A DNA stretch of 64,000 bases from positions 373-64,372 of the forward strand of contig JAOUJV010000003.1 of assembly GCA_029882995.1 (NCBI GenBank). Direction: 5' to 3'. Below, one piece after another: positions 1-57,611 of the stretch. Below the pieces are notes generated by a model that did no database searches, had not been told where the DNA came from, and saw only the letters and a list, made by a program, of their open reading frames with translations. Made by a program: the position numbers and the translations under genes. This DNA is from Gammaproteobacteria bacterium. Its GTDB lineage: Bacteria > Pseudomonadota > Gammaproteobacteria > DAOVJZ01. Numbering within the stretch: position 1 is the first letter of the stretch; each line of letters opens with the position of its first letter.

Positions 1-1474
1 GCGCAGCTAAAAACAGCGGCCATGCACTATGCACAATATCATAACCATCACGACGTTCTGCGGCTGGGCTGTTACGCCATGTCCAGATCATGTTCGCAAG
101 TTGTTTCCAGCGGTCATACTCGCTGGCCGGATGGTCTTTTCTATTAACGTGTTGCTGAGTCAAATCAGTCAGATATTCAGGCAGACGTTCATTATATAAG
201 GCATGACGCACATAGAATTCAGAACGCCGACGACGCAGATACCAGCGAATCATGTCGATATTGGCTTCCAGACGCCAATATTTACGACACAGCCGTTGAG
301 TAAAAATGCGCTCCAGCACAAGACGAACCGCAAGATAATCAACCATATCGACTTTTACATCGGTATGCCCTTCATAACCGGGGTGCTGATGACGCCACAG
401 GAACATACCGGACCAGCCTGGCAGTTCCAATGATAATCTTTCAAGATAACTGCCCCAACGGGATTCATCCAGTCCCAATTGCCTTAAAGAAAACTCAATG
501 GTGTCATAAGGATCATCTGTCAGCAGTTCCAGTTCATCACGCCATTCAGGTAAGTCATCAAGTAACCAGCTCAAATCGTGTTCAGCATTTTCCAGCCATG
601 CTTTATAAAAACCCTGTCCTCTTGCATTGCTCTTCCATGCACTGATACCTTGATCAAGGAAATTACCTAGCTGACGAATTAATAACGGACGAATATTCTC
701 CATCACATCTTCGCCAGTGATCGACTTAAGGAAACTCCCCATCGTGTCTTTTATACCAATCAGGGCAAGATGCTCATCCAGTCTGCGCGTGGCTTCTTTA
801 CGCATGAGCAAATGAAGCATAGGTTGTTCACCAAGAGTTTCATCCTCTTCATGATTCAACATCTCTATCATCTTGTCTGCCTGTTCAGTAGACAGATCGG
901 TTAATTCTTCCGGATGCAGAATAAAATGTTCCAGTTCAAGACAACCCAGACAAGCAAGCCAGAGTTCATTAACAGAAGTCGCTTCGTCTTTGCCCGATCT
1001 CTCAAGAAAACGCTGGCGGCTTTCATTGCTGACATCACTATGAAAACGGTTAAACACGTCAAACTCGGCCATTTCCCAGTGAAGCTGACTGGCAGAAGAT
1101 AATGTCAGCACTTTTGTAAAAGCCGTGAGATAAAAATCCCGCTGTATAAGCTTGAGCTGCTCTTTATCCAGCACTGATTTACTGGGCTGCAATGATTCGG
1201 TGTTATTGAAAACATTTACCAGATCTTGCTCGGTAATACGCTTCTGGCTTAATAATTTTCGAAACTCTGATTCAGGCAAAAAACCTTCTGCACCGGTTAT
1301 ATCACGTGCAGCGGCCACTCCCTTCTCAAAAGATAAATGCTGAAAACCGTGTAAGGTGTTGTGATGTACAAAATCACTGATCGGCGCCTGTGCGGGCAAC
1401 ACATGCTCAAAGTGCTGAATCAACTTTGTCAGCATTGCACGCATATCGCCTTTTGCTGTCGAATGCTCTGTCAT
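1..1474 (-). CDS. Large protein truncated by the window edge, translationally coupled (ATGA) to the upstream PF00361-like gene; putative DabA (DUF2309/UPF0753) inorganic-carbon pump subunit
   Basis: The minus-strand ATG at 1472-1474 overlaps the TGA stop of the upstream gene. Hand translation of the N-terminus gives MTEHSTAKGDMRAMLTKLIQHFEHVLPAQAPISDFVHHNTLHGFQHLSFEKGVAAARDITG. No minus-strand stop-delimited ORF is reported in 1-1474, which is consistent with one frame staying open to the window edge. The DabA call rests on gene context (downstream of a PF00361 membrane protein) and on size. Confidence 0.5.
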   Translation of the reverse strand, partial: MTEHSTAKGDMRAMLTKLIQHFEHVLPAQAPISDFVHHNTLHGFQHLSFEKGVAAARDITGAEGFLPESEFRKLLSQKRITEQDLVNVFNNTESLQPSKSVLDKEQLKLIQRDFYLTAFTKVLTLSSASQLHWEMAEFDVFNRFHSDVSNESRQRFLERSGKDEATSVNELWLACLGCLELEHFILHPEELTDLSTEQADKMIEMLNHEEDETLGEQPMLHLLMRKEATRRLDEHLALIGIKDTMGSFLKSITGEDVMENIRPLLIRQLGNFLDQGISAWKSNARGQGFYKAWLENAEHDLSWLLDDLPEWRDELELLTDDPYDTIEFSLRQLGLDESRWGSYLERLSLELPGWSGMFLWRHQHPGYEGHTDVKVDMVDYLAVRLVLERIFTQRLCRKYWRLEANIDMIRWYLRRRRSEFYVRHALYNERLPEYLTDLTQQHVNRKDHPASEYDRWKQLANMIWTWRNSPAAERRDGYDIVHSAWPLFLAA

Positions 1475-2955
1475 CACAATGCTCCCTGACTACCTGCTAT
1501 AAAGAACAGGTTGCTTAATTGTGAAATCGATGTCGACATCAGATTTAATAGCAATGATGGCATGATACCGGGTAATAAAAAGCCTATGGTTAATACCAGT
1601 GCCAGAAACATTTCAGCCGGTTGCAAATCCATCACCACTTTCATCTCTGAACGCACAGGACCGGTAAATAGACGCCCAACCGTACGAATTGCATAAGCTG
1701 CACTGATCAACATACCCACACTTAACAACACGACTACCCATCCCCAGCGTTCAAAACCGCCAATAATGGCATGCAGTTCGGCAATAAAGCCGGCTGTACC
1801 AGGCATACCGACAGCACCAATAAACGCCAGTATGGTAAAAAAGGCAAAACGCGGTGTAGTACGAATCAATGAACTGTAATAACGCACATCTCGCTCATGT
1901 GTACGTTCATACAACAAACCAATCAACAGGAACAAGGCACCGGCTACAAGTCCATGCGCCACCATTTGCATTAATGCGGCAGTCAGTCCTGCGCTATTAA
2001 GTGCAGCAATGCCCAGTAACACTACTCCCATGTGACTAATCGATGAATAAGCGATCATGGCTTTTAAATCGGTTTGACGCCACGCAAGCAAACCGCCATA
2101 GATCAAACTAATCAATGCCAGTGTTGCCAACATGGACTGCAGAACCAGCGCCGCACCCGGCAACATCTCAACCACACGGATCAGGCCATACGCCCCCATC
2201 TTGAGCAAAATACCAGACAATAAAATACTGACCGGGCTTGGCGCCTCTACATGCGCCAGCGGCAACCAGCCATGCATCGGAAAAATTGGCATCTTCACAC
2301 CAAAGCCAACAAGAAAACCAAGGAATATCCAGACTTGTGTGTTTTCTGCTAATAACTTGCCACCCGTATTGAATGCCTCCATCGCAAATGAATGACCGGG
2401 AATCGTATCAAACAATACCAGTAGTGAAATCAGCATGAATACCGAGCCACCCATGGTGTACAACACAAAGTTGAGTGAAGCTGTACTGCGACGCGCCCCG
2501 CCCCAACGATCAATCAGGAAAAACAACGGGATCAGGGTCAGTTCCCAGAACACATAAAACAGCCCCCAGTCTTGCGCCATAAAAACACCCAGTAGCGCAC
2601 TTTCCAGTACCAGCATGAGCAGATAATAACCCTTGGGACTGTCCTTGATATTATGTGATGCCACAATCGCCACAAAACACAGCAAGGTTGCGAGCAAAAC
2701 CATCGGAAATGAAAAGCCATCAATACCCACAGCATAGGAAGTACCCAGACGCGGGTTCCATGGCACATATTCACTAAACTGCATACCGGTGAGACCGGTA
2801 TCAAATGAAGAGAACAGACTCCATGCTACTGCCAGTGCTACTACGGAGGTCAAAATAGCAATCGTACGAATCTGGGCATGATAACGCCCCGGCATCAGTG
2901 AAATTAACACTGCACCAGTCAGCGGAACCAACAGTAGTATTGTCAGAATACCCAT
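1474..2955 (-). CDS. Proton-translocating NuoL/M/N-MrpD family membrane subunit (PF00361-like); putative DabB
   Basis: 493-aa polytopic membrane protein with NuoM/N-like conserved blocks (WLPLAHVEAPSPVSILLSGILLKMGAYGLIR). No other complex I genes are adjacent. It is coupled to a large downstream ORF. Confidence 0.75.
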   Translation of the reverse strand: MGILTILLLVPLTGAVLISLMPGRYHAQIRTIAILTSVVALAVAWSLFSSFDTGLTGMQFSEYVPWNPRLGTSYAVGIDGFSFPMVLLATLLCFVAIVASHNIKDSPKGYYLLMLVLESALLGVFMAQDWGLFYVFWELTLIPLFFLIDRWGGARRSTASLNFVLYTMGGSVFMLISLLVLFDTIPGHSFAMEAFNTGGKLLAENTQVWIFLGFLVGFGVKMPIFPMHGWLPLAHVEAPSPVSILLSGILLKMGAYGLIRVVEMLPGAALVLQSMLATLALISLIYGGLLAWRQTDLKAMIAYSSISHMGVVLLGIAALNSAGLTAALMQMVAHGLVAGALFLLIGLLYERTHERDVRYYSSLIRTTPRFAFFTILAFIGAVGMPGTAGFIAELHAIIGGFERWGWVVVLLSVGMLISAAYAIRTVGRLFTGPVRSEMKVVMDLQPAEMFLALVLTIGFLLPGIMPSLLLNLMSTSISQLSNLFFIAGSQGAL

Positions 2956-3178
2956 TTATAGAAGCCACAATAGAAGGATAAAGGGGAAAAGCCAGATAAT
3001 TAGCCAAAAATCACCGGTAACCCTTTGAAAGATATGGATTCTATCATGTTTTAGAAATCAGGTCTCGCGGAAAATGTGGGAAAAACAGTGAATAATTAGA
3101 GCGACGGGTTTTCCGGTCTCGTACGTTATATAGTCAAGTCCGGCTCAAACCGGTTCATAACAAACACAGGAGCACATT

Positions 3179-3793
3179 ATGTCTACAAAACCCACCCTCA
3201 CCTTCGCCTTACTGGTTGGTCTTGTCAGCAGTACCAGTCTGCTGGCTGATGATAATAAAGACCGTTTTATGTCTCGCTTTGATACCAATAATGATGGTCT
3301 CATCACACAGGATGAATTTAATCAGAAATCAGAAGAACGATTTAATCGTATGGACAAGGATCACGATGGCCTTGTTAATCAGAACGAATTTAGAGAATAT
3401 GCCAAATCACGCCGCCATAACCGTTCCATGCAATTCATGGATAAAGACAAAGATGGCAAGGTCACACGCGATGAATTCTTCTCTGCACAGCAAGAACGTA
3501 TTGAACGTAAATTCAGAAAAATGGATCGAAACAATGACAATGTACTTACCGAAGATGAGCTGAAAAAATCAAAACATGACAAAGGCAAGAAATTCAGCAG
3601 CATCTTCAAAAAAATGGATAAAAATGAAGATGGCAATGTTACCCGACAGGAAAGCCAGCAATCATGGAATAACTGGTTCCAACGCATGGATAAAAACAAG
3701 GATGGTTCAGTAACACGTGAAGAAGCCATTACCGCACGCAAGGAAAGACACAGGGAACATCGTAAAGACCGAGACGACGACAGGGACGATTAA
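3179..3793 (+). CDS. Secreted EF-hand calcium-binding protein with six canonical EF-loops
   Basis: Signal peptide (MSTKPTLTFALLVGLVSSTSLLA). Six 12-residue DxDxDG...E loops: DTNNDGLITQDE, DKDHDGLVNQNE, DKDKDGKVTRDE, DRNNDNVLTEDE, DKNEDGNVTRQE and DKNKDGSVTREE. Acidic C-terminal tail. Shine-Dalgarno-like aggag upstream. Confidence 0.85.
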   Translation: MSTKPTLTFALLVGLVSSTSLLADDNKDRFMSRFDTNNDGLITQDEFNQKSEERFNRMDKDHDGLVNQNEFREYAKSRRHNRSMQFMDKDKDGKVTRDEFFSAQQERIERKFRKMDRNNDNVLTEDELKKSKHDKGKKFSSIFKKMDKNEDGNVTRQESQQSWNNWFQRMDKNKDGSVTREEAITARKERHREHRKDRDDDRDD

Positions 3794-3795
3794 CT

Positions 3796-4368
3796 TTGAA
3801 TATTGAAGTCAGTGATGAACAACTGGTGGCATTGATTGGTAAAGGTGACAAACAGGCCTTCAACCAGTTTCTGACTCGACACCTGAAAACCATGCTGAGT
3901 TTTGCAACACGATACACAGGAAAGCACGATGCGGAAGACATTACACAGGAAACCTTTACCCGACTCTGGATGCATGCCGGCAAATGGAAAAATCAGGGGC
4001 TATCACCCAGAAGCTGGCTTTATCGCATCAGCTACAACCTGTGTATTGATCACTTGCGTAAACAACGCAATACAGGCAATGACAATGTGGTTGAACTCCA
4101 TACAACATCACGAGACGAACCTGAACAGCAGATTATTCAACATGCAGAACAAGGTGCAGTACAACATGTACTTGAATCATTACCCGAACGACAACGCACT
4201 GCTCTTGTTCTCTGCATGTGGCAAGGACTTTCCAATAAGGAAGCCGCTGCCAGTATGGACATCAGTATCGAGGCGCTGGAGTCCCTGCTTTCACGCGCAC
4301 GGCGAACCCTTAAAAAACAACTACTGGAACAACAAACAGACACAAAGGAACTGAAACATGAATCATGA
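3796..4368 (+). CDS. ECF-type RNA polymerase sigma-70 factor (TTG start in the ORF track; the true start may differ)
   Basis: Sigma-70 region 2 and region 4 features (DAEDITQETFTRLW, LSNKEAAASMDISIEALESLLSRARRTL), about 190 aa. It starts 3 nt after the stop of the EF-hand gene. Confidence 0.85.
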   Translation: MNIEVSDEQLVALIGKGDKQAFNQFLTRHLKTMLSFATRYTGKHDAEDITQETFTRLWMHAGKWKNQGLSPRSWLYRISYNLCIDHLRKQRNTGNDNVVELHTTSRDEPEQQIIQHAEQGAVQHVLESLPERQRTALVLCMWQGLSNKEAAASMDISIEALESLLSRARRTLKKQLLEQQTDTKELKHES

Positions 4369-4831
4369 ACGCGTAAAAACCCTGATTGATTGTTATGGTG
4401 CCGATGCCGAACGCTGGCCACAGGAGGAAATGGAAGCCGCCATCATGTTGATTGATAACTCACCTGAATTAATTGCCTATCAGGATGATGCACGTGCGCT
4501 CGACAAACTGATTAACAACCAAAATATTCAGGATGATATCGATACCCATGCCCTTGCCAGCCGTATTATGGATAGCCTCCCGCAACAGGAACAAACCAGA
4601 TCAGTCAAGGCACCCTATTTTGCCTTTGCTTCTGCTGCAACTGTCGCACTGATCTTTGTCAGCACCTGGTTACTGCAACCGGTGACTATGGAAGCACCCT
4701 TTGTAGAAATAAATAACATTGCACAAACTGAATTTGAAGAATGGGCCTGGGAAGAAACCCTCGACCAGACCCCATTGACCCTGGCAGAAAACAATGAACC
4801 TGCTGATGAATGGTCATTTATGGAAATATAA
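4358..4831 (+). CDS. Putative membrane-anchored anti-sigma factor
   Basis: Overlaps the sigma gene by ATGA. 157 aa with a single transmembrane segment (APYFAFASAATVALIFVSTWLL), a cytoplasmic N-terminal domain and an acidic periplasmic tail. This is the typical position of a cognate anti-sigma. Confidence 0.6.
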   Translation: MNHERVKTLIDCYGADAERWPQEEMEAAIMLIDNSPELIAYQDDARALDKLINNQNIQDDIDTHALASRIMDSLPQQEQTRSVKAPYFAFASAATVALIFVSTWLLQPVTMEAPFVEINNIAQTEFEEWAWEETLDQTPLTLAENNEPADEWSFMEI

Positions 4832-4859
4832 CCAACACACTAACATGGGAGACAATAAT

Positions 4860-5204
4860 ATGAAGAAACGAAAACTCACCACTGTATTCGCCACCCTGCT
4901 TGGACTGGGTATCGTCACAACCGGCACTGCCTATGCCCATAGCCACGATTATGACAGACATGATCGCTATGAGCACCGTGAAATGCACAAGGAAATGAAA
5001 CATGAACGTGCGCACTATCGGGAATATGAAAAATGGAAAAAATACCGTAACAAACATGCACGTTATCATCGTCATGACAAGTATTGCAGGCACAATGAGC
5101 GCCATGATAATCATGACTACCACGATACTGGCCATAATAGAAATAATTCAGATGATAACTGGCATGTTCGGATAGTGCTGGATAGAAGCTGGTTGCAGAT
5201 GTAG
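4860..5204 (+). CDS. Small secreted histidine-rich low-complexity protein
   Basis: ATG at 4860 is preceded by gggagac. Signal peptide MKKRKLTTVFATLLGLGIVTTGTAYA. The mature region is extremely rich in His, Arg, Tyr, Asp, Glu and Lys (HSHDYDRHDRYEHREMHKEMKHERAHYREYEKW...RYHRHDKYCRHNERHDNHDYHDTGH). The longer ORF from 4794 is rejected as the start. Confidence 0.7.
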   Translation: MKKRKLTTVFATLLGLGIVTTGTAYAHSHDYDRHDRYEHREMHKEMKHERAHYREYEKWKKYRNKHARYHRHDKYCRHNERHDNHDYHDTGHNRNNSDDNWHVRIVLDRSWLQM

Positions 5205-5529
5205 GAATTAAATTACAGGTTATTTTAAAAATTCTGTTATTTCGACTGAGGAATAATATGAAGAATAGAGAAATCTAAAAAAATCGGAGCAATTGGTGCA
5301 ACAAGATGAATATGATTGACTACATTCGTCTGGAAAAAACTGCAACATGCAAGGGCTAAAAGGAAGTTAGCAGTGAACGAAACACATCACCATCCTCTGT
5401 TGCCACCAATTTTAATGCTCCTGACCAGGACCACCTGGCTGTTTAGAATTGTATTCAATACAATCTGATTCCGGAATGTGACATATTGTCGCAGTATTGG
5501 AATTTATTCAGAAATGGAACAGCTTTATT

Positions 5530-5997
5530 CTACTGCGCCTTCCACTGTTTTAATGCGACGGGATTGAGTACGCCTGTTACTGCGCGCCGTTGGTGTCTGG
5601 CATTAAACAGGTAACTGCGCGGCAATTCTCCATACCAGTTGGGGTCAATTTCATAACGTAACTGTTGTGCTATACCGTTATCAAACACCCATGCATTGAC
5701 ATGGTTAAGTTTAAATTCTTTCAGTCTGGTTTTTATTTCATCCATATTGTCCGGACTGTCTGTTGAAATAACGACCAGTGCCAGTTTCGGTTGTTGTGTT
5801 AGCAAATCTCCCAACATTGCCAGTTCCTTGTAACAAGGAGGGCAATCCAGTGACCAGAATACCAGCATAAATGACTGTTTGTGATGTTGCTCAAGAATTT
5901 GAGCATAACTGCCCATCCGAAGAATCTTGACTGGCTGTTCGGCCATTGCCTGAAATCCGATGCTCAATAATATCAGCAGGAGCAATCTTCTTGTCAT
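5530..5997 (-). CDS. Periplasmic thioredoxin-fold redoxin (TlpA/ResA-like thiol:disulfide oxidoreductase)
   Basis: Signal peptide plus the CxxC motif WSLDCPPCYKE in a thioredoxin-like context. Only 2 nt downstream of the BNR gene. Confidence 0.75.
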   Translation of the reverse strand: MTRRLLLLILLSIGFQAMAEQPVKILRMGSYAQILEQHHKQSFMLVFWSLDCPPCYKELAMLGDLLTQQPKLALVVISTDSPDNMDEIKTRLKEFKLNHVNAWVFDNGIAQQLRYEIDPNWYGELPRSYLFNARHQRRAVTGVLNPVALKQWKAQ

Positions 5998-5999
5998 GA

Positions 6000-7247
6000 T
6001 TAGTACCCTTCAAGCGGAAACAATTGATAATCCTGACCAAGACGATGCCACACGGAATAGACGTTCTTATTATCTGCAATCAACAAAGGGTGATCTGAAC
6101 CCCCTGCCGTTTTTGCAATTATATGCGGAGTTGACCATGATTTACCGGCATCAGATGAACGCATCATGAAAAGTATTGATTGCTTGCCATCAAACTCCTT
6201 CCATGCAAGAAAAATATTATCCCCTTTGCTTAGTACCTGAGGGTGTGCTGCCTGTGCATTGTAATTACCAAAACTCAATGGTTCGGAAAAACTTTTCCCC
6301 TGATCATCTGTACGTGCATAGAACAAACCATGACGTTGCGGTGCATTATTAAACCAGGCCAGATGATAGCTTCCATTTTTTGAGATCGAGATATCAGGCC
6401 CATGATGTGGACAGGCATCAACCTGCCAATTATCATAACTGACGCGTTGTACCTTTCCAGCCTGCGTCTGGTTATCAAACTTCACTAAAGCATGATCACG
6501 GATGTTGTCTCCGAATATGTGGCGCCAGACAATGACTGGCAGTTGATCATTATCTATTGCCATCACGACACGACAACACTGACAACTGTAATCAATCACT
6601 TTTTTATTTTTACTGAAGGATTTTCCACCATCAGTTGAAACAGCATAATAAAGTGCCGCCCCATTATAGGCCTTGCCCTCCTTTTTTGCCTTTAACAGGT
6701 CGCGTTTGTCGAGCCAGGCTATATAAATATCACCACGTTCGTTTACAGCCATTGCATCAAACCGGTGACTGGTAACTACTTTATGATCATTCACCGTCAC
6801 GGGATCAAAAAAATGCTTGCCATTATCTGCTGAATAGCTGAAACGAATATGACCACTGAAACGTTGTTCCAGTTTTTGGGTCCATGAAACATAAATCCGC
6901 CCACGGTTCCCAATTACAATTTTTGGTCTGTTCTCCCCCATTGCATAGATTTGCTCAGGAACTGTGTTGACTGCCACCGGCAAGCTGTAACTCTTGCCTT
7001 TATCATCTGAATAATTGACATAAACATGATTGCCGAACTCCCAGGCAACCCATAACCTGCCATTATCATCAAACACAGCACTCGGGGCATTGGCGCATCG
7101 GAGTGACGGCAAGGCATCCTGCTTATCACATTCAGAATGCACGGTAGCGGCATGATGATGCTGATGTTCCTGCTTTGCCGCTTCCACAGTGCCAGTCAGA
7201 CCAAACCAGATAAAAAATATCTGAACCAGTAATAACACTTTATACAT
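6000..7247 (-). CDS. Secreted BNR/Asp-box repeat beta-propeller protein (sialidase-like fold)
   Basis: Signal peptide, then a His-rich stretch (QEHQHHHAATVHSEC). At least five S-x-D-x-G-x-S/T-W/F/Y Asp-box repeats: SDDKGKSY, SADNGKHF, STDGGKSF, TDDQGKSF and SSDAGKSW. Cys motifs CQCC and CPHH. Confidence 0.75.
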   Translation of the reverse strand: MYKVLLLVQIFFIWFGLTGTVEAAKQEHQHHHAATVHSECDKQDALPSLRCANAPSAVFDDNGRLWVAWEFGNHVYVNYSDDKGKSYSLPVAVNTVPEQIYAMGENRPKIVIGNRGRIYVSWTQKLEQRFSGHIRFSYSADNGKHFFDPVTVNDHKVVTSHRFDAMAVNERGDIYIAWLDKRDLLKAKKEGKAYNGAALYYAVSTDGGKSFSKNKKVIDYSCQCCRVVMAIDNDQLPVIVWRHIFGDNIRDHALVKFDNQTQAGKVQRVSYDNWQVDACPHHGPDISISKNGSYHLAWFNNAPQRHGLFYARTDDQGKSFSEPLSFGNYNAQAAHPQVLSKGDNIFLAWKEFDGKQSILFMMRSSDAGKSWSTPHIIAKTAGGSDHPLLIADNKNVYSVWHRLGQDYQLFPLEGY

Positions 7248-7262
7248 ATTTGGTTTCCGTTA

Positions 7263-9341
7263 CTATTTGAACTTGTAATTTAAACCAACATAGACGGTAC
7301 GTTCCATACCGGGGGCATATTCAAAATCACCTGATGAAGTATACTCAGCAGAAGTTGCATAGCGCTCATCTGTAATATTCATTACACGACCATAAAGCTC
7401 AACTTGTTTAGTTAACGGATAATTACCTCGCAAATGAAATAGATCATGACCGCTATATTTGTAGTCATTAGCATCATTCATCCAGTAACTGCCCAGGCTT
7501 TCCCATTCCAGCTCAATTTTTCCTCCCTTAAATGCGGCCGGGCGGTAATTAAGTCGTGTATTTGCTACCAGGCGTGGTGCCGATTTCATTTCATTTCCAC
7601 TATAGTCAACTCCATCTTCCGGATTCCAGTCTTCATAAGTATGCTTAGCATAGGAAAACGCAATATCCAGATCTAGTCGCTTGTTTAGCGGTGCACCAAG
7701 TGCAATTTCAATACCACGATGCAATGTTTCACCCGCATTCATAGATTCACGAGATTTATCTGCATATACATAAGTAATAATATCATCATCCTTGGTCATA
7801 TGATAAAGCGAGACTTCATACTTGAATTGGTTCGCTGTCTTACCACGCAGACCAATTTCAAAACTGTCTATTTTGACAGGCTCAAGACTCACAGTATCGT
7901 TGGATTTTCCGGGACGGAATAATTGTCCTTCTGATGGCACACGGAAAGAATGGCGGTACGATGCAAAACCATTCAGGTTTTTATTAAATATGTAAGTAGC
8001 ACCCAGTTTTGGACTCAAATGTGAGAAATCCACTTTTGTATCCGAGGGATGTTTATAGGTTGCCGGAAATGTCATGCTAGTTGGATTCAGTACAATATTG
8101 GCATCACTCAGGTTGTTGTCATAATCATATTCAATATGATCGTAACGCAAACCGCCAGTCAGTCGCAGTTTTTCACTGAGCGAGGTTTCAACATGCACAT
8201 AAGGAGAAACCCCTGTAAAACTGACATCATAATCATAAATAGTCTCTTTCAATACATAGGATGTATAGATATTGCCAACCTTGGTGGCATCAATACTCTT
8301 TTCCAGCCTGCTGCCAGGGCTGTAATCAATATCCATGCCGGTTATTACACGAGTACGCATGGGTTTAATGTCATAACGGTACTTCAGCATTAAACCAAGC
8401 GATTCATTCTCCGTCTCGGATATTTGCGGGTCATAGGTAAATGACCAGTTTGGCATATACTCCATTCTGTTGTTTCTGTAATAAGGTGTAATGCTCAGCA
8501 GTGAATTAGCTGTTTCCTTTTCCCATGATGTCGACAGACGCAGTGCTTGTACTTCACGGTAGGATATAGGCGTGTAATTGGCTGTTGGATTGTTTTCATA
8601 ATCTTCTTTTAGCAAACGTGAACTACCTGCCGTTGTTTGATCAATATTGGACGTACTTAATACGGTCTTCAGCGTAGCACCACTATGCATAAAACGATCC
8701 CAGCGCAAGGTTACGCCCTGTCGATCATAATCCGTAGCATCACGCCAGCCATCAGTATGTGTCAGATTGAGGTCAGCACGAAAACCATCCGTGTCATTAC
8801 TGTCACCACCTGTTAATAATATGCGGCTCCAGCCATTCTCACCTGCCTCAACATTTATAGAAGCCTCGGCTTCAGTGGGTGATGGACGTGTCATAACATT
8901 AACGACACCACCAATGGCGTCACTGCCATACAGGGCTGTGCCTGGCCCCTTGTTTACTTCGATACCACCTGATTGTGGTATATTCACTTCATACAAGGCA
9001 TTATGATTGAAAAATCCGGTAGAACGCGTCGGGATGCCGTCTTCCAGATAAAGATATAAAGGTGATGTAGATAATGGCTGGCGAATAGCGGTCATGTGTC
9101 CTTCACCACCAGTCACATTAATATGGACGCCGGGAATACGGCTCATAATCTCGGATGGATGTGACGGACGCACGTCTTCAACCTCTTTGCTGTCAACAAC
9201 ACCCACAGTGGCCGGTGTTTCTGCCTTGAGTGTTTTTTCACGTGTGCCTGTTACTGTTATCTCTCCGAGTTCAGTTTCTACCGCTACTGCTCCGAATGAC
9301 ATCATAGTCAAAACAGCAGCGGTGATTTTTTTGTAATACAT
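7263..9341 (-). CDS. TonB-dependent outer-membrane receptor
   Basis: 692 aa with a signal peptide, a plug domain, a long beta-barrel with aromatic-rich strands and a C-terminal ...YVGLNYKFK. Confidence 0.85.
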   Translation of the reverse strand: MYYKKITAAVLTMMSFGAVAVETELGEITVTGTREKTLKAETPATVGVVDSKEVEDVRPSHPSEIMSRIPGVHINVTGGEGHMTAIRQPLSTSPLYLYLEDGIPTRSTGFFNHNALYEVNIPQSGGIEVNKGPGTALYGSDAIGGVVNVMTRPSPTEAEASINVEAGENGWSRILLTGGDSNDTDGFRADLNLTHTDGWRDATDYDRQGVTLRWDRFMHSGATLKTVLSTSNIDQTTAGSSRLLKEDYENNPTANYTPISYREVQALRLSTSWEKETANSLLSITPYYRNNRMEYMPNWSFTYDPQISETENESLGLMLKYRYDIKPMRTRVITGMDIDYSPGSRLEKSIDATKVGNIYTSYVLKETIYDYDVSFTGVSPYVHVETSLSEKLRLTGGLRYDHIEYDYDNNLSDANIVLNPTSMTFPATYKHPSDTKVDFSHLSPKLGATYIFNKNLNGFASYRHSFRVPSEGQLFRPGKSNDTVSLEPVKIDSFEIGLRGKTANQFKYEVSLYHMTKDDDIITYVYADKSRESMNAGETLHRGIEIALGAPLNKRLDLDIAFSYAKHTYEDWNPEDGVDYSGNEMKSAPRLVANTRLNYRPAAFKGGKIELEWESLGSYWMNDANDYKYSGHDLFHLRGNYPLTKQVELYGRVMNITDERYATSAEYTSSGDFEYAPGMERTVYVGLNYKFK

Positions 9342-9404
9342 TACTACTCCCCTTTACGTATATTAATAACTTCCATTAAATAATCAGGAATGATCTTTCC
9401 ATGA

Positions 9405-10058
9405 TCAATTCAAACGAAACTGCATTGCATAACTTACTTGTAATGGATATTCCATTTCCGGTGGTGGAGATGGGAATGGTACCGCTCTGGTGATAGCCTG
9501 TTCAGCAGCCCTTCGCAATACAAGCGCACCGCCATCTGTTTTCAAATTATTTATGTTTCCATTATTCAAAAGCTCAAATGAAACATTAATACTGCCTTCG
9601 ATACCACGACTGCGTGCAGATTGCGGATAATACTTATGGCCTTCAATATAGGTCAGCAAATTACTGAGATAATGTTCTTTGATAACTACTGTTCTGTTTG
9701 TTGCTTCTCGCTGCGCTGTTTCTGCAACTCTGGGTGCCACCGCTTTTTCATGTACAACATCCGGTGCTGGCTCCGGTTTTGGTTCAACTTTTTTTTCCAC
9801 TACCGGCTTGGGTTCAGTAATGGTTTCTTTCTTTAATTCAGGCTTGGGCTGTAATGTTTCCGGTTTGACTAATTGAGGTGGTTCTTGTGGCGGGGGCAAT
9901 AGATTGACATTAATCCGCTGTGCATATTCCGGTGCCTGTGCACTACTATTTAATTGATGACTCATAAACTGGACGAATATCAGCAAGTGAATGAATAACG
10001 AAACCGTCACCGCCGTCATATAGGTGCGATTTCCATCTGTTATATGATCAAACATCAT
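9405..10058 (-). CDS. tonB: Energy transducer TonB
   Basis: N-terminal transmembrane anchor, a Pro/Lys/Glu-rich spacer (PPPQEPPQLVKPETLQPKPELKKE...PKPEPAPD) and a C-terminal TonB domain. Confidence 0.8.
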   Translation of the reverse strand: MMFDHITDGNRTYMTAVTVSLFIHLLIFVQFMSHQLNSSAQAPEYAQRINVNLLPPPQEPPQLVKPETLQPKPELKKETITEPKPVVEKKVEPKPEPAPDVVHEKAVAPRVAETAQREATNRTVVIKEHYLSNLLTYIEGHKYYPQSARSRGIEGSINVSFELLNNGNINNLKTDGGALVLRRAAEQAITRAVPFPSPPPEMEYPLQVSYAMQFRLN

Positions 10059-10224
10059 GGGTATTTCTTATGCCCTTTCCGGGCCGGAAAATGACCAAAT
10101 CGGGGTTAAATTAGTTGAAATAGATATTAGCCAAGACTGGTGTCTACTAGAATGTGACACAGTGTCACGCGACAATTTGTCGCACCTCATTTGTTATTGC
10201 TGATATAAGCTTTAGAATGGAACC

Positions 10225-11493
10225 ATGCTAAAAGAACAAACAGTCACATCAGGTAACATCATTAATGTAAGACGCATTATCTGGCTACGGCTGATAGTGC
10301 TGGCAAGTGAAATAGTCGCACTATGGCTAACCATTGCCTATCTCAAAATTGCCCTGCCAATTCTGCCTATATCTGTAATATTGACTACTGTCATCACGAT
10401 CAGTATTGCCAGCCTGATTCGCCTGCGCATGGCATGGCCCGTATCCAACAAGGAGCTGTTTGGGCAACTGATTGTCGATGTGCTGGCATTGACATTGCTA
10501 CTGTATTACACCGGTGGTTCAACCAATCCATTTGCACCATTGTTCCTGTTACCGCTGATTTTGACAGCGGCTACCCTGCCCGGTCTTTACACATGGCTAA
10601 TGGTCATATTGACGATTGGCTGTTATTCACTCCTGCTATTTTTTTATATCCCGTTTCCTGAAGCACACAGTATGCATGGTGAAGGGTTTAGACTGCATGT
10701 ATTGGGAATGTGGCTCGGATTTATCCTGAGTGCCTTGTTGATTGCCGGTTTCACTGCACGCATGGCAGTCACAGTACAGCGACAAAATAAAAAAATTGCT
10801 ACCTTGCGTGAAAAGCAATTAAAACAGGAGCATATATTGGCGCTCGGTACACTGGCTGCCGGTGCGGCACATGAACTTGGCACGCCACTTTCTACCATGG
10901 CCGTACTATTGAATGATATTTCACCGGATACCCCCTTGCCGGAGTCCAGACTTCATACCCTGCAAAGTCAGGTTGACCGCTGCAAGAATATACTTGGTTC
11001 TATTTCAGCGGCTGCCGGTCAGATTCGGGCAGAATCCGGTAGTAGTGCGCTTCTGGATGAATACCTGAATGATCTGATTATTCGCTGGAATGAATCGCGA
11101 CCTGATGTGTTGGTAGATATCAACCTCAGTGGCTCTGAGCCCACCCCTCGTGTTGTAATAGATCAGACGCTGGAACAAGCCTTGTTAAATATATTGAATA
11201 ATGCCGCCGATGCCTCACCGGACAATGTTGAGGTCACCGCTGTTTGGTCACAACAGGAACTGACACTACAAGTATCCGATCGTGGAACCGGTCTTTCACC
11301 TGAACTGGTCGAGAAGGCTGGTGAACATATTTTAAGTACCAAACAGGATGGTATGGGACTGGGACTGTTTCTGACCTACACTACATTGGAGCGACTTGGT
11401 GGTGATGTACGCATTTTTAATCGTGAAGGTGGTGGCGTAATCTGTCAGATTAATCTGCCTCTCTCTAATATACAATTAACCAAAAATGACTGA
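10225..11493 (+). CDS. regB: Redox-responsive sensor histidine kinase, RegB/PrrB family
   Basis: Six N-terminal transmembrane helices, an H-box AAGAAHELGTPLSTMAVLLNDI and a C-terminal HATPase domain (DRGTGLSPE...GMGLGLFL). Confidence 0.8.
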   Translation: MLKEQTVTSGNIINVRRIIWLRLIVLASEIVALWLTIAYLKIALPILPISVILTTVITISIASLIRLRMAWPVSNKELFGQLIVDVLALTLLLYYTGGSTNPFAPLFLLPLILTAATLPGLYTWLMVILTIGCYSLLLFFYIPFPEAHSMHGEGFRLHVLGMWLGFILSALLIAGFTARMAVTVQRQNKKIATLREKQLKQEHILALGTLAAGAAHELGTPLSTMAVLLNDISPDTPLPESRLHTLQSQVDRCKNILGSISAAAGQIRAESGSSALLDEYLNDLIIRWNESRPDVLVDINLSGSEPTPRVVIDQTLEQALLNILNNAADASPDNVEVTAVWSQQELTLQVSDRGTGLSPELVEKAGEHILSTKQDGMGLGLFLTYTTLERLGGDVRIFNREGGGVICQINLPLSNIQLTKND

Positions 11494-12037
11494 ACAGGTA
11501 CAAACAGAACAACCCAGTTTACTGATTGTCGATGATGACAAAATCTTTTGCGAAGTGCTGTCAGAGGCAATGGCAAAACGTGGTTATACCGTGACCACAG
11601 CAAACAATGTTGATGAAGGGCTCGAGCTCGCCAGAAAGGAACCACCTGAGTACGCTGTCATTGATCTTAAGATGCCCGGTAAATCAGGGCTGGAAATGGT
11701 GACAGAGCTTAAAAAACTGGATGAGCATACACGCATGGTGGTATTAACAGGCTATGCATCCATTGCTACAGCAGTGGAAGCCATTAAACTGGGTGCTATT
11801 CATTATCTGGCGAAGCCGGCAGATGCAGATGACATTATGGCGGCATTCTTTCGTGATCAAGGAAACAAGGATGCGCCCATCCGCAATAAGCCATTATCGG
11901 TTGGGCAAGTCGAATGGGAACATATCCATAAAGTACTGACAGAATGTGATGGCAATATTTCAGAAACTGCACGACGACTAAACATGCATCGCCGAACACT
12001 GCAAAGAAAACTGGCCAAGTATCCGGTGAAGAATTAA
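11486..12037 (+). CDS. regA: Response regulator RegA/PrrA/ActR family (receiver plus Fis-type helix-turn-helix)
   Basis: Receiver domain (LLIVDDD...AVIDLKMPGKSG) and a C-terminal ETARRLNMHRRTLQRKLAK helix-turn-helix. Overlaps the kinase gene by 8 nt. Confidence 0.85.
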   Translation: MTEQVQTEQPSLLIVDDDKIFCEVLSEAMAKRGYTVTTANNVDEGLELARKEPPEYAVIDLKMPGKSGLEMVTELKKLDEHTRMVVLTGYASIATAVEAIKLGAIHYLAKPADADDIMAAFFRDQGNKDAPIRNKPLSVGQVEWEHIHKVLTECDGNISETARRLNMHRRTLQRKLAKYPVKN

Positions 12038-12062
12038 AAAAGGGGCCTTAAGGCCCCTTTTA
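12036..12062. terminator. Bidirectional rho-independent terminator (aaaaaggggccttaaggccccttttt)
   Basis: Perfect GC-rich hairpin flanked by an A-run and a T-run, between the convergent regA and PEP-CTERM genes. Confidence 0.8.
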
Positions 12063-12081
12063 TGTTGCGTTCCAAATCAAC

Positions 12082-12843
12082 TTATTTGCGTCGAGCAAAT
12101 CCCATCAGACCAACCAAGCCACTACCAAACAACCAGACTGCAGCAGGAACAGGAACAGGTGTAACTTCATATAATGTATTAAAAGTCACACTATCACCGG
12201 CTGAAAGGCCAAAGTTCATGTGAATACCGATAGTGTTATTAACAGCACCTGAAAAGGCGGTTGGACCCTGACTGATTTCGGCAATATTCAATGAACATCC
12301 CGGACCAATACAACTACTGCCAAAATTAAATGCCATCATGGTTGAACCATCAATCAGGCCAGACCAGTCATTAACATTGAGTGTTGCACCACCACTGTTG
12401 TCAGCATCCGTAAAAGAACCTGAAAAACTTCCAAAGTGATATCCATTAGTAAATGACGGAGAAATCGGTAGGGTAAACATGAGATCAAATGTCTGTATCA
12501 TCGAACTGGTATTGGTCACTGAAAAACTGCCGCCAATAAACGGATCCGGATCTGCCGTTAAAGACCAGCTGTAATCCCACAAAGGTGAAGAAACGCCTTC
12601 CACCATCATGGAAACATTGTCCATACCCATGTAGGTTGTCGTGCCATCCATGTTTTCCATGACAGTCACGTTCGATGCTGTCGAACTTGTCACATTAGAC
12701 AAATCCTGCATCCAGGTCATGGTGCCGGGAATCATTACCGTGTTGTTAAGACTAACAGGTGCCGCATAGGCTTGTGAAAACATGGTCAGTGCGACTGCAC
12801 CAAAAACCAAGGAACCAACATTACAGTGCTTTAGCTTCATCAC
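12082..12843 (-). CDS. PEP-CTERM sorting-domain secreted protein (exosortase substrate)
   Basis: N-terminal signal peptide, a Ser/Thr/Asn/Gly/Met-rich body, and a C-terminal VPVPAAVWLFGSGLVGLMGFARRK (P-V-P motif, hydrophobic helix, basic tail). Confidence 0.8.
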   Translation of the reverse strand: MMKLKHCNVGSLVFGAVALTMFSQAYAAPVSLNNTVMIPGTMTWMQDLSNVTSSTASNVTVMENMDGTTTYMGMDNVSMMVEGVSSPLWDYSWSLTADPDPFIGGSFSVTNTSSMIQTFDLMFTLPISPSFTNGYHFGSFSGSFTDADNSGGATLNVNDWSGLIDGSTMMAFNFGSSCIGPGCSLNIAEISQGPTAFSGAVNNTIGIHMNFGLSAGDSVTFNTLYEVTPVPVPAAVWLFGSGLVGLMGFARRK

Positions 12844-13006
12844 TGGACTACTCCCCTCATTAAATACTTTGTTGTTCTAATACTGCATTTGTTATTTATT
12901 TATGAATGATAAACAATAAGTCTGGACATTGTCCATGAATTTCTTTTTATAGATAATGAGACTTATTCTCATTCATAAGTACTATCAGCTTTCATTTTTA
13001 CAAATA

Positions 13007-13034
13007 AAAAAAGGGCCTAGAGCCCTTTTTTTAT
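13007..13034. terminator. Rho-independent terminator downstream of pnp (aaaaaaagggcctagagcccttttttt)
   Basis: GC hairpin with flanking A and T runs, located 3' of pnp on the minus strand. Confidence 0.8.
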
Positions 13035-13054
13035 TTCTGTCTTAAGTTTAAAAC

Positions 13055-15142
13055 TTACTCATTAACCGCCTTCATGCTCAGACGAATACGGCCTTGCTTA
13101 TCGACTTCCAGTACCTTCACCTTAATCATGTCACCTTCAGACAGTTTGTCGCTGACATTTTCAACGCGCTCTTCTGAAATTTGTGAGATGTGTACCAGTC
13201 CGTCTTTGCCTGGCAGGATGGTGACAAATGCACCAAAGTCCATGAGCTTGGCTACACGGCCTTCGTAAATCATACCAACTTCCACTTCTGCAGTCAGTTG
13301 TTCGATACGGCGACGTGCTTCTTCACCTGCTGCCTTGTCAACAGAAGAGACCTTCACTTCACCATCGTCAGTAATGTCAACGCCAGCACCGGTTTCTTCA
13401 GTAATAGCACGGATGGTTGCACCACCTTTACCAATTACGTCACGAATCTTGTCAGGGTTAATCTTGAAGCTGATGATGCGAGGCGCATATTCAGACATGT
13501 CTTCACGTGCTGATGAAATCACCTTGTTCATTTCACCCAGGATATGCAAGCGACCTTCTTTTGCCTGACCCAGTGCAATTTCCATGATTTCCTTTGTGAT
13601 ACCGTCAATCTTGATGTCCATTTGCAATGCAGTAACACCATCGTTAGTACCAGCCACCTTAAAGTCCATGTCACCCAGATGATCTTCATCACCCAGAATG
13701 TCGCTCAGTACAGCAAAATCACTACCTTCCTTAATCAGACCCATCGCAATACCGGCAACAGGCGCTTTCAATGGTATGCCTGCATCCATCATAGCCAAAC
13801 TACTGCCACAAACTGATGCCATTGAGCTGGAACCGTTTGATTCTGTAATTTCGGATACAACGCGAACGGCGTATGGAAATTCGTTCATGTCCGGCATAAC
13901 CGCAGCAACACCACGCTTGGCCAGACGACCATGACCGATTTCACGACGACCTGGTGAACCGGTACGACCTGTTTCACCTACGCAGAAAGGAGGGAAATTA
14001 TAGTGCAACATGAAAGGTTCGGTTTTGGTTCCTTCCAGCGCATCAATTTTTTGTGCATCACGTGTTGTACCCAGTGTTGTTACAACGATGGCTTGTGTTT
14101 CACCACGTGTAAACAGGGCTGAACCATGTGTGCGTGGCAAGACGCCGGTACGTACTGAAATCTGACGAACAGACTTATTGTCACGTCCATCAATACGTGG
14201 CTTGCCCTCAATAATACGGCTGCGAACAATCTTTTTCTCCAGCTTGCCGATAGCACCACTGACTTCTTCCGAGCTATAGCTAGGTGAAGCACCTTCAGCA
14301 GTAAATACTTCCATCAAGCCTTTGCGAATTTCACTCAGCTTGGTATAACGTTCCTGTTTGTCTGCAATCTGGTAGGCAGCATCAAGTTTATCCTTACCAT
14401 CAGCGGCAATGGCATTAGCCAGTTCTTCATTGGCAACAGGTGCTTCCCATTCCATTTTCGGTGTATTGACTTCAGCAGCAAATTCCCGGATTGCATTAAT
14501 CACTGTTTTGCCTGAATCATGACCGAATACAACCGCACCAAGCATGACTTCTTCTGACAACATCTTGGCTTCTGATTCCACCATCAATACAGCATTTTCT
14601 GTTCCAGCGACAACCAGATCCAGTGCGGAATTTTCAAGCTGACTGAATGTTGGATTTAAAACATAATTACCATCAATGTAACCCACACGGGCTGCACCGA
14701 TTGGGCCATTGAAAGGTGCGCCGGAAATTGACAGTGCTGCTGATGTACCAATCATGGCTGGAATATCAGGATCAATTTCAGGGTTGAGTGACATCACGGT
14801 TGCGATGACCTGCACTTCGTTGGCATAACCTTTAGGGAAAAGCGGACGAACCGGACGATCAATTAATCGTGAAGTCAGTGTTTCCTTTTCGGATGGACGA
14901 CCTTCACGTTTGAAAAAACTGCCTGGAATCTTGCCGGCAGCGTATGACTTTTCCTGATAGTTAATTGTCAGCGGGAAGAAGTCTCTGCCTTCTGTCGCTT
15001 CTTTTTCTACAACGGCGGTTACAAGCAATGTTGTACCATCCATATCAACTATAACTGCACCACTTGCCTGACGTGCAATTTCACCTGTTTCTAATGTGAC
15101 GGTGTGATCACCGTACTGAAAGCTTTTCTTTACCGAAGCCAC
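13055..15142 (-). CDS. pnp: Polynucleotide phosphorylase
   Basis: 695 aa with two RNase PH domains plus KH and S1 domains. The N-terminus [26 protein letters not shown] is typical. Confidence 0.95.
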
Positions 15143-43635: not shown

Positions 43636-43645
43636 ATTAAAATAA

Positions 43646-44602
43646 ATGGTAGTAGTATTTAAACATAAAACAGGATTTATTTATCCCCGCATAATACGGT
43701 ATGCGGCAATGATTTCTCTTTATGTTTTATCCGGCCTATTCTTCACTGCTCACGCAGATAATGATTTCATAATCACATACGTAATATCTGATGACAGAGA
43801 AATATACAATGAATTTATTCACAAAATTAATCATAAGAAATATTCCGTATTAAATGTTGAGCATTTTTCTTCCAAGACACTTGAAACCTTAAATACTGAT
43901 CTATTCATTACTATTGGTGCAAAAGCAACCAGAAAGGTAATGGAAAGCTCAAAGAACAAGAATTTACTGGCCCTTTTTATAACAAAAACAAACTATCTGG
44001 ATATTTCAAAGAAATTTAATCGTAAGTTTAGTGCCATTTTTATTGATCAGCCTGTTTCACGGCAGTTAAGACTGATTAAATCTGCATTCAAAGAAAAAAC
44101 ACATATTGGCGTTGCTGTCAGCAATCAATCCAGAATGCATATCCCGGAACTTGTTGAGAGCGGTAATCACCTTGGCTTGAGGATTCATATTGAAACACTT
44201 CCTGATCCTGATAGTATTCACCATATCATCAGAAAGCTGGCTGATAATAATGACTTAATTCTGGCCATGCAAGATAGCAATCTCTATAACAAATATACGA
44301 TACAGAATATTCTGATGACAACTTATCATGCAAATATACCCCTTATCGGCTACTCCAGACCTTATGTACAGGCTGGTGCATTAATGAGTGTGTATACGTC
44401 TATTGATAATCTCGCCCTTCAAACTAATGAACTTATTAAACAGGTAATAAAGGGAATGAATTTACCTTCTCCTGATTACTGCAAGTATTATTCTATTGAA
44501 TTAAATCATCAGGTGGCTAATTCACTTGCAATAAATCTTGATGACAAATCAGTTTTATTAAAACGTCTAATCAACCTGGAAGACAGGTATCAACATGAAT
44601 AA
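43646..44602 (+). CDS. Periplasmic solute-binding-like protein (ABC-type periplasmic component fold), putative co-sensor
   Basis: 318 aa with an N-terminal hydrophobic segment. Two-lobed PBP-like organisation. Overlaps the downstream kinase by 8 nt. Confidence 0.5.
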   Translation: MVVVFKHKTGFIYPRIIRYAAMISLYVLSGLFFTAHADNDFIITYVISDDREIYNEFIHKINHKKYSVLNVEHFSSKTLETLNTDLFITIGAKATRKVMESSKNKNLLALFITKTNYLDISKKFNRKFSAIFIDQPVSRQLRLIKSAFKEKTHIGVAVSNQSRMHIPELVESGNHLGLRIHIETLPDPDSIHHIIRKLADNNDLILAMQDSNLYNKYTIQNILMTTYHANIPLIGYSRPYVQAGALMSVYTSIDNLALQTNELIKQVIKGMNLPSPDYCKYYSIELNHQVANSLAINLDDKSVLLKRLINLEDRYQHE

Positions 44603-53897: not shown

Positions 53898-54161
53898 TCA
53901 GGGCGAATCTTCGAAATATTTACGGAAGGCTTCGACATCGAGGAAATAAAAGCAAATTTCAGTGTCATTTCCGGTCAGAACCGGTACTCGGGTACCAAAT
54001 TTCTGTTCCAGCTCTGCATCCCCGCTGATGTCCACTTCCCTGATTGTGAAGTCCCAATGCTCGCGCTGTTGATCCAGCGCAACCCGCATTTCCTCACACA
54101 AATGGCACCCGTAACGACCGTACAGCACCAACTCACGGGGACGGGAGCCGGTGTCTGTCAT
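53898..54161 (-). CDS. Glutaredoxin-like thioredoxin-fold protein (CxxC)
   Basis: 87 aa: LVLYGRYGCHLCEEM. Overlaps the degP stop by 1 nt. Confidence 0.65.
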   Translation of the reverse strand: MTDTGSRPRELVLYGRYGCHLCEEMRVALDQQREHWDFTIREVDISGDAELEQKFGTRVPVLTGNDTEICFYFLDVEAFRKYFEDSP

Positions 54162-55585: not shown

Positions 55586-55615
55586 GGGATGTAATCCTGT
55601 ACAAAAAAGTTGAAT

Positions 55616-57589: not shown

Positions 57590-57611
57590 AACCCGCTCCT
57601 CACCCTTACAA

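Follow-up and report, generated by a model that had tools for sequence, protein, structure and literature searches.

A compact four-gene cassette of an uncultured gammaproteobacterium probably constitutes a positively autoregulated sigma/anti-sigma operon of the ECF290 type (ECF, extracytoplasmic function), in which a periplasmic EF-hand protein acts as cation sensor. The cassette lies at positions 3179-5204 of a 64,000-nucleotide (nt) stretch of contig JAOUJV010000003.1 (assembly GCA_029882995.1, positions 373 to 64,372), in the following called the window, and encodes, in this order, a secreted EF-hand protein, an ECF sigma factor, an anti-sigma factor and a secreted histidine-rich (His-rich) protein. 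It represents a variant of the ECF290s2 architecture, with six EF-hands and a His-rich protein, and not a new kind of system; the parent family, ECF290, is widespread, already catalogued and barely studied. For the window itself our analysis is a refinement at the level of annotation. Its wider value lies in the poorly understood field of bacterial Ca2+ sensing, where a family-wide gene linkage, a defined promoter and an anti-sigma candidate render the link between EF-hand protein and anti-sigma factor directly testable. Computation yielded the genes and their conservation, the linkage across the family, the promoter and a predicted anti-sigma-like fold.

The open reading frames (ORFs) of the cassette were checked by means of an ORF listing and by direct reading of positions 2900-5560. 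All four lie on the plus strand: the EF-hand gene, first in the operon, at 3179-3793 (204 amino acids, aa), the sigma gene at 3796-4368 (190 aa), the anti-sigma gene at 4358-4831 (157 aa, one transmembrane (TM) segment) and the His-rich gene at 4860-5204 (114 aa), whose true start is the ATG at 4860. Independent gene calls on the source contig, a protein of which has the NCBI locus tag OEW89_00880, yield the same products of 204, 190, 157 and 114 aa, and thus the outer coordinates as well as the four gene identities of the initial annotation of this DNA are confirmed. Its intergenic spacings were right for the 28-nt gap between anti-sigma and His-rich gene and had to be corrected for the other two. 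As the sigma gene starts with the TTG at 3796, the gap behind the EF-hand gene measures 2 nt instead of 3 nt, and the sigma and anti-sigma genes overlap by 11 nt, not by 4 nt, because the anti-sigma ATG is found at 4358 and the sigma stop codon at 4366-4368, while the ATGA at 4365 lies in another frame. Genes 1 to 4 are preceded by the Shine-Dalgarno-like sequences CAGGAG, AGGGA, AAGGA and GGGAGA, respectively. The proposed co-transcription is borne out by the tight spacing, by a single upstream promoter and by terminators located 3' of gene 4 in two related loci, both described below. An Rfam search of the window gave no match. Downstream of the cassette, an AT-rich spacer of 326 nt, which separates two convergent gene sets, contains a perfect 8-nt palindrome, ATTGTATT-C-AATACAAT, at 5448-5464.

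The initial annotation had suggested looking for the same four-gene arrangement in other genomes, and it indeed recurs, with gene content and order unchanged, in two diverged lineages from metagenomes, represented by loci L006 and L009. Compared to the window, the identities in L006 and L009 amount to 59% and 41% for the EF-hand protein, 72% and 60% for the sigma factor and 64% and 51% for the His-rich protein; the anti-sigma proteins of these loci (P0002 and P0003), the closest relatives of the window anti-sigma, share about 62-63% and 51% identity with it. The flanking genes are unrelated, i.e. a divergently oriented GGDEF response regulator upstream and a resistance-nodulation-division (RND) efflux system downstream in L006, and an IclR regulator and a phosphoketolase in L009. 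Since the cassette recurs despite these different flanks, the arrangement reflects more than chance. In both loci a stem-loop followed by a T-run, that is an intrinsic terminator, is found directly 3' of gene 4, which thus marks the end of a four-gene operon.

A candidate autoregulated promoter of the ECF type, supported by conservation and by a motif scan, is located upstream of the EF-hand gene on the plus strand at 3101-3130. It comprises a -35 element GCGACGG (3101-3107), a 16-nt spacer and a -10 element CGTTATA (3124-3130), the part GCGACGG-N16-CGTT spanning 3101-3127, and a leader of about 40-45 nt is predicted to precede the ATG at 3179. In the alignment of the sequences 5' of the EF-hand gene it belongs to a 29-nt block which the window shares with L006 and L009. 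More distant relatives carry the element at the same place, so that the comparison yields a precise promoter motif for the family, GCGAC[AG]G-N16/17-CGT[AT]. Within the 64 kb of the window the strict motif occurs once (3101-3127), compared to 0.06 expected occurrences; with a relaxed motif one additional match is obtained at 50507, within an ORF of the minus strand, compatible with a chance occurrence. Among the 75 non-redundant loci introduced below, all 35 matches lie on the coding strand, about 28 of them just upstream of the EF-hand gene. This position implies that the EF-hand gene leads an autoregulated operon of the sigma type. The suggestion of the initial annotation that the sigma factor drives its own operon and thereby its own metal-binding proteins is thus consistent with a conserved, strand-specific predicted promoter, albeit one of a different kind, as the GAAC-N16/17-TC-like element expected in 2956-3178 is absent from this region and GCGACGG-N16-CGTT is found instead. 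No sigma-70-like promoter was found in 2956-3178 either. In two relatives a second copy of GCGACGG-N16-CGTT precedes another gene, namely a pro-kumamolisin/S53 sedolisin-like peptidase gene in L075 (5318-7507) and the gene of a DUF1800 protein in L121 (4917-6389). This hints at both products as candidate further extracytoplasmic regulon members of ECF290-type sigma factors.

To place the cassette in a wider context, a metagenome scan with a 10-sequence alignment was carried out. It returned 80 loci, and from these and further fetched loci a non-redundant set of 75 was analysed. In nearly all of them an anti-sigma gene follows directly 3' of a sigma gene related to that of the window. Linkage of the EF-hand gene was counted in the 48 loci whose upstream sequence extends over 450 nt or more, of which 39 (81%) contain an ORF for an EF-hand protein with signal peptide directly upstream of the sigma gene. 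These 39 proteins have four EF loops in 16 cases, two in 14, six in 7, and three and five in one case each. A periplasmic EF-hand partner is hence the rule for this anti-sigma family, and the possibility raised in the initial annotation that homologues of the EF-hand gene are normally unlinked to ECF sigma genes is not borne out by these loci. Position +2, counted from the sigma gene, was evaluated for 44 candidates, 30 of which are Metal_resist proteins (PF13801), nine LTXXQ proteins and two RND adaptors. Named genomes with the same arrangement are a Thiotrichaceae metagenome-assembled genome (MAG), Pseudomarimonas arenosa and Asticcacaulis solisilvae. A genome scan with a sigma alignment returned mostly unrelated ECF sigma factors, with L011 and L013 as the only informative loci. 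In the alpha-type relatives L094, L107 and L125, the latter from Asticcacaulis, glnE, the gene for glutamine synthetase adenylyltransferase, is the immediate upstream neighbour of the cassette. In the closest six-EF-hand relatives, genes for CusB/CzcB-like RND adaptors follow directly downstream (L006, 5213-6517; L047, 4592-5764; L048, 2837-4006), to which L006 adds an RND pump (9050-13179).

The window sigma factor matches Sigma70_r2 (E=1.5e-18) and Sigma70_r4_2 (E=4e-15) in Pfam as well as TIGR02937 (109 bits, cutoff 42.9). With sigma-2 and sigma-4 domains only and a length of 190 aa (expected about 170-220 aa), it shows the features of an ECF (group IV) sigma factor. Its best NCBIfam match is NF004113/PRK05602 with 202.2 bits (cutoff 208), and the same model is the best match of all eight family sigmas tested, with 166.9-256.1 bits overall and 239-256 bits for the alpha-type ones. 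Using the PRK05602 score as a stand-in for the group profile hidden Markov model (HMM), the window sigma is, as judged from its sequence, best assigned to ECF290 (formerly ECF20; equivalent to NCBIfam PRK05602), s2-like.

This group is described in version 2.0 of the ECF classification (Casas-Pastor et al. 2021, Nucleic Acids Research; supplement, bioRxiv 10.1101/2019.12.11.873521), to whose excerpted text all statements on ECF290 made here refer. According to this entry, 97.6% of the group belong to Proteobacteria; position +1 is taken by a putative anti-sigma factor with one TM segment and without a Pfam domain, and just such a protein is encoded at +1 in the window. The predicted autoregulatory promoter, ACGG-Xn-CGT, is likewise fitted by GCGACGG-N16-CGTT of the window. 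For subgroup ECF290s2 the entry gives an EF-hand protein at -1, where the window has the six-EF-hand gene ending 2 nt before the sigma start, and a periplasmic, membrane-bound metal-resistance protein (Metal_resist) at +2; a GGDEF response regulator is listed in the s2 neighbourhood. Furthermore, the anti-sigma factors listed for ECF290 match the HMMs built in this work (E 5e-16 to 8e-8) and carry the (Y/H)G(A/P)DxxxWP motif, as does the family described here. Because the ECF290 description, the promoter, the anti-sigma HMM matches and the PRK05602 best matches agree, we file the system under ECF290 (s2-like). The window deviates in two respects: the Metal_resist protein at +2, present in the relatives L011, L013 and L125 and among the 30 of 44 candidates mentioned above, is replaced by a non-homologous secreted His-rich protein, and the EF-hand protein possesses six loops compared to the two or four which are commoner among relatives. 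The excerpted ECF290 entry names no studied member. Nevertheless, the view of the initial annotation that this combination is not a described system has to be given up, as the ECF290s2 layout is contained in the classification (Casas-Pastor et al. 2021) and a Caulobacter circuit of an EF-hand protein and an ECF sigma factor has been published (PMC13171946).

Could the sigma factor instead be a general envelope-stress sigma of the RpoE type, with an unrelated regulon and neighbours gathered by chance? ECF sigma factors share their domains, and the window sigma indeed matches RpoE and SigW models weakly. However, the window contains a separate, canonical rpoE-rseA-rseB-degP locus (54161-58190), whose RpoE scores 320 bits (cutoff 236) and shares 23% identity with the cassette sigma, and the neighbours of the latter are conserved throughout the family. 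We consider a general-stress sigma, which the initial annotation had named as a possible refutation, extremely improbable.

The EF-hand protein carries a Sec signal peptide with cleavage after SLLA and is thus secreted. Pfam EF-hand_1 matches it with E=1e-29 in six stretches, which correspond to six canonical Ca2+-type loops, in sequence order DTNNDGLITQDE, DKDHDGLVNQNE, DKDKDGKVTRDE, DRNNDNVLTEDE, DKNEDGNVTRQE and DKNKDGSVTREE. Full-length orthology extends to the six-EF-hand proteins of five other loci (38-59% identity). The computed charge of the mature protein is about neutral without Ca2+, and hence the protein should be strongly cationic with six Ca2+ bound.

Its best NCBIfam match, at E=3e-21, is to the lanmodulin model LanM (NF053806), and a cluster with tonB and a TonB-dependent receptor is found on the opposite strand, 0.3-5 kb downstream. 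Both observations would suit a lanthanide system, in which a lanmodulin-like binder works together with the nearby receptor. Typical LanM loops combine Pro2 with Asp9. In the loops of the window protein, position 2 is T/K/K/R/K/K and position 9 is T/N/T/T/T/T, so that Pro2 or Asp9 occurs in none of the six, and with 75.7 bits the protein falls far short of the LanM cutoff of 135; an identity as lanmodulin is thereby ruled out. In addition, the receptor cluster is convergent with the operon and absent beside the L006 and L009 cassettes, and a scan of the large window ORFs revealed neither PQQ nor XoxF genes. A lanthanide system is therefore very improbable.

In the anti-sigma protein, a cytoplasmic three-helix domain (residues 1-72), which contains the motif IDCYGADAERWP, is followed by a TM segment (about 88-105) and by a periplasmic tail of 52 aa. 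The predicted fold of the protein is possibly class-I-like, the N-terminal domain resembling those of RseA/MucA, RsiW and RslA, while the Pfam search returned only a sub-threshold DUF3379 match. The tail, with 13 Asp/Glu, three Trp and no Lys/Arg, has a computed net charge of about -13; it bears the helix IAQTEFEEWAWEETLDQ and ends with FMEI. A profile built from the window, L006 and L009 proteins was searched against 1.84 billion representative proteins and retrieved 1125 clusters at E<=1e-3, with lengths of 97-231 aa, mostly 130-220 aa, among the 150 matches listed. Common features are the N-terminal motif RVxxLxxxYGAxxxxWPxxER and the single TM segment, and the proteins of the gamma-type clade also have an EFxQWxWE helix on the periplasmic side and end in an acidic stretch. 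Pfam holds no model for this family, and a plasmid search with two of the anti-sigmas gave no match.

Across loci L045-L124, the tail types of the individual clades track the number of EF-hands in the -1 protein. Acidic EFxxWxWE tails go along with six EF-hands, GxYxxPTDxLL...GCxxxxLGC tails, which contain two Cys, with two EF-hands, and short alpha-type tails with four EF-hands. Moreover, the tail, with its charge of about -13, and the Ca2+-loaded EF-hand protein, predicted to be strongly positive, are complementary in charge, which, like the co-variation of tail type and EF-hand number, we count in favor of a sensor function of the EF-hand protein.

A related circuit has been studied experimentally in Caulobacter vibrioides, where cabp, the gene for the periplasmic three-EF-hand protein CaBP (133 aa), immediately precedes the ECF gene sigV (dos Santos and Simao 2026, PMC13171946). 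The electrophoretic mobility of CaBP shifts with Ca2+, EGTA and acid each induce cabp, overexpression of sigV induces and its deletion lowers cabp, and overexpression of CaBP raises sigV (PMC13171946); the last result implies that the EF-hand protein feeds back on the sigma factor. The transcription start site of cabp lies 40 nt upstream of the ATG, preceded by a -35 element GGAAA, a 13-nt spacer and a -10 element CGTTCA, and cabp and sigV form separate transcripts, with an internal sigV promoter and SigT also driving both genes (PMC13171946). The window shares with this circuit the Sec-secreted EF-hand gene directly upstream of an ECF sigma gene, a leader of about 40 nt and a -10 element starting with CGTT. 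The cabp promoter can even be read as the family motif, GCGAC[GGAAA]-N13-CGTTCA (in the form GCGACGGAAA-N13-CGTTCA). The two differ in the EF-hand protein (three EF-hands and 133 aa in CaBP, six and 204 aa in the window) and in transcription, the internal SigT-dependent sigV promoter and separate transcripts contrasting with the one upstream promoter of the window. A profile search for relatives found Asticcacaulis, another member of the Caulobacteraceae, and no named Caulobacter protein among its matches. The Asticcacaulis locus L125 contains, in order, an EF-hand gene, a sigma gene, a member of the anti-sigma family and a Metal_resist gene, with GCGACGG-N17-CGTG upstream of the EF-hand gene. 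As the CaBP-SigV model leaves the link through the membrane as an unnamed component (PMC13171946), the gene directly downstream of the sigma gene is an obvious candidate for it.

Taken together, these findings suggest the following mechanism for the window operon, of which we infer the signal, the contact between EF-hand protein and tail, the proteolytic step and what the His-rich protein does. One sigma-dependent promoter (3101-3127) would drive all four genes. At rest, the cytoplasmic three-helix domain of the anti-sigma factor would hold the sigma factor at the membrane. The periplasmic EF-hand protein would act as cation sensor, with Ca2+ occupancy, or the displacement of Ca2+ by protons or competing cations, as input, and would pass its state to the short, very acidic, Trp-containing anti-sigma tail. 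The anti-sigma factor would then be inactivated, probably by regulated proteolysis, and the freed sigma factor would transcribe the operon and thus amplify its own synthesis, the EF-hand protein acting positively, as suggested by the Caulobacter genetics. The +2 protein, induced by the pathway itself, may act as modulator or buffer, much as CpxP or ZraP do. The operon thus plausibly senses cations, as had been proposed in the initial annotation.

The main rival reading, possible if on the unlikely side, is that the EF-hand and His-rich proteins are mere regulon products, i.e. cation buffers or chaperones without sensing function, and that the anti-sigma factor answers another envelope cue via its tail or a protease. 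The first place in an autoregulated operon, after all, shows only that the EF-hand protein is induced. Besides, the +2 slot holds unrelated proteins (Metal_resist, LTXXQ, His-rich, RND adaptor), like swappable outputs, and the extra promoter copies before the sedolisin-like peptidase and the DUF1800 protein point to extracytoplasmic outputs in the regulon. Against a pure output stands the linkage of the EF-hand gene in 81% of the loci, across proteobacterial classes and always at -1, which is more typical of a signalling partner, as well as the increase of sigV upon CaBP overexpression (PMC13171946).

The His-rich protein is synthesized with a signal peptide (cleavage after AYA) as a precursor of 114 aa, of which 88 aa remain in the mature form. 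It is rich in His, Arg, Asp and Tyr and contains one Cys; its 16 His correspond to 14% of the precursor residues and to 18% of those in the mature part, whose computed charge rises from +4 at pH 7 to about +16 at pH 5.5. The conserved C-terminus reads DDNWHVRIVLDRSWLQM. No Pfam or NCBIfam match was obtained for the window protein at E<=0.01 or for its L006 and L009 orthologues at E<=0.1. The AlphaFold2 model is of low confidence (pLDDT 54), and comparison with the Metal_resist profile PF13801 revealed no similarity (hhalign probability 0.6%), the LTXXQ profile likewise remaining unmatched. Homologues form one cluster among 5.8 billion proteins, and in a scan of 127 loci the HMM matches were confined to the lineages of the window, L006 and L009. 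The orthologues hence define a small new family of secreted His-rich proteins. In the window the protein fills the +2 slot, which Metal_resist (PF13801) holds in relatives; its presence in place of a CpxP/ZraP-like +2 protein implies that this accessory slot is interchangeable. Most likely it serves as periplasmic metal-binding buffer, as feedback modulator, or as both.

The ECF290 label and the analogy with CnrYXH also bring to mind a transition-metal resistance module, induced by Ni, Co, Zn, Cu or Cd, in which the His-rich protein sequesters the metal and the EF-hand sites bind ions of the Cd2+/Pb2+ type instead of signalling through Ca2+. Such a module would be in line with PF13801 at +2 in relatives, with the 18% His of the mature window protein, with the CusB/CzcB-like RND adaptors and the pump 3' of the cassette in L006, L047 and L048, and with the metal detoxification function which the excerpted ECF290 entry infers under the label 'heavy-metal resistance' (Casas-Pastor et al. 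2021). However, a terminator separates the cassette of L006 from its RND genes, which are not preceded by an ECF promoter, and no efflux genes adjoin the window operon. The name of PF13801 is an annotation label, and the family is akin to CpxP, Spy and ZraP; each of the six EF loops is of the canonical Ca2+ type, and the Caulobacter experiments point to Ca2+ limitation and acid (PMC13171946). A dedicated transition-metal module thus appears quite unlikely.

Within the preferred reading, that of an autoregulated operon with an EF-hand cation sensor, a more specific arrangement may be sketched. The EF-hand protein could work as a periplasmic calmodulin-like switch which clamps or releases the tail helix IAQTEFEEWAWEE depending on Ca2+ occupancy and in this way controls anti-sigma stability, while the cationic His-rich protein could be a second tail ligand gated by pH or transition metals. 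The result would be a two-input cation sensor made of small soluble proteins, not of the membrane protein. We put this forward as a tentative and rather unlikely proposal.

Several points speak against an autoregulated operon with an EF-hand sensor. In the window itself no intrinsic terminator was found after gene 4, and the sigma score remains just under the PRK05602 cutoff (202 vs 208). The co-variation of tail type and EF-hand number could stem from shared ancestry alone, and the contact between EF-hand protein and tail is a putative one. The wiring of the Caulobacter circuit, with separate transcripts and SigT, is not simply transferable to a gammaproteobacterium, and we infer the orthology of SigV to the window sigma from the Asticcacaulis locus and the promoter geometry. 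Finally, the host is an uncultured MAG.

With regard to other known systems, the initial annotation had already set the layout apart from FecIRA and CnrYXH, and domains, gene order and receptor architecture agree with this. FecI-FecR-FecA is ruled out, as the anti-sigma factor lacks a FecR domain and the nearby TonB-dependent receptor (7263-9341, minus strand) lacks a signalling (STN) domain; the receptor comprises Plug and barrel domains only, is convergent with the operon and is not conserved with the cassette. CnrYXH of Cupriavidus metallidurans (ECF291) resembles the proposed system in that periplasmic metal sensing controls a sigma factor inducing its own operon. The -10 element of the CnrH promoter resembles CGT. 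In CnrYXH the order is anti-sigma (-2), sensor CnrX (-1) and sigma, compared to EF-hand, sigma, anti-sigma and His-rich in the window; CnrY is a class II anti-sigma factor, there is no EF-hand protein, and the target is cnrCBA efflux, none of which applies to the window cassette. Gene order and components, together with the lack of an RND operon beside the window cassette, thus rule out CnrYXH, even though in the excerpted classification ECF291 and ECF290 derive from the same original group, ECF20 (Casas-Pastor et al. 2021). In RpoE-RseA-RseB, Cpx/CpxP and ZraSR/ZraP, a pathway-induced periplasmic accessory protein modulates a membrane transducer, which is the role proposed here for the EF-hand and +2 proteins. 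The accessory proteins themselves are non-homologous, and no similarity links the His-rich protein to CpxP or Metal_resist.

The surroundings of the cassette in the window comprise several further gene sets. Upstream and divergent (window 1-2955, minus strand; L001 1-6598) lie DAB-type genes for inorganic-carbon uptake, including a DabB-like Proton_antipo_M gene (1474-2955), a DabA gene (PF10070) which runs off the window start and more Proton_antipo genes; they suggest a chemolithoautotrophic host. The convergent minus-strand cluster at 5530-10058, for which metal uptake is a possible role, contains, besides the receptor gene, tonB (9405-10058), a BNR/sialidase-like beta-propeller gene (6000-7247), whose product has the N-terminal His run QEHQHHH, and a thioredoxin/AhpC-like gene (5530-5997). 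A histidine kinase and a short response regulator with Fis-type helix-turn-helix (HTH) follow at 10225-12037, a gsp cluster for type II secretion begins at 22031, and at 41617-47288 a hybrid sCache histidine kinase gene comes after that of a second TonB-dependent receptor. The rpoE locus, on the minus strand, consists of rpoE (57612-58190; its 320-bit match is to TIGR02939), an rseA-like gene (57032-57589), an rseB-like gene (56055-57035) and a DegP/MucD-like protease gene (54161-55585), with lepA downstream (51975-53783) and nadB divergent on the plus strand (58380-60005).

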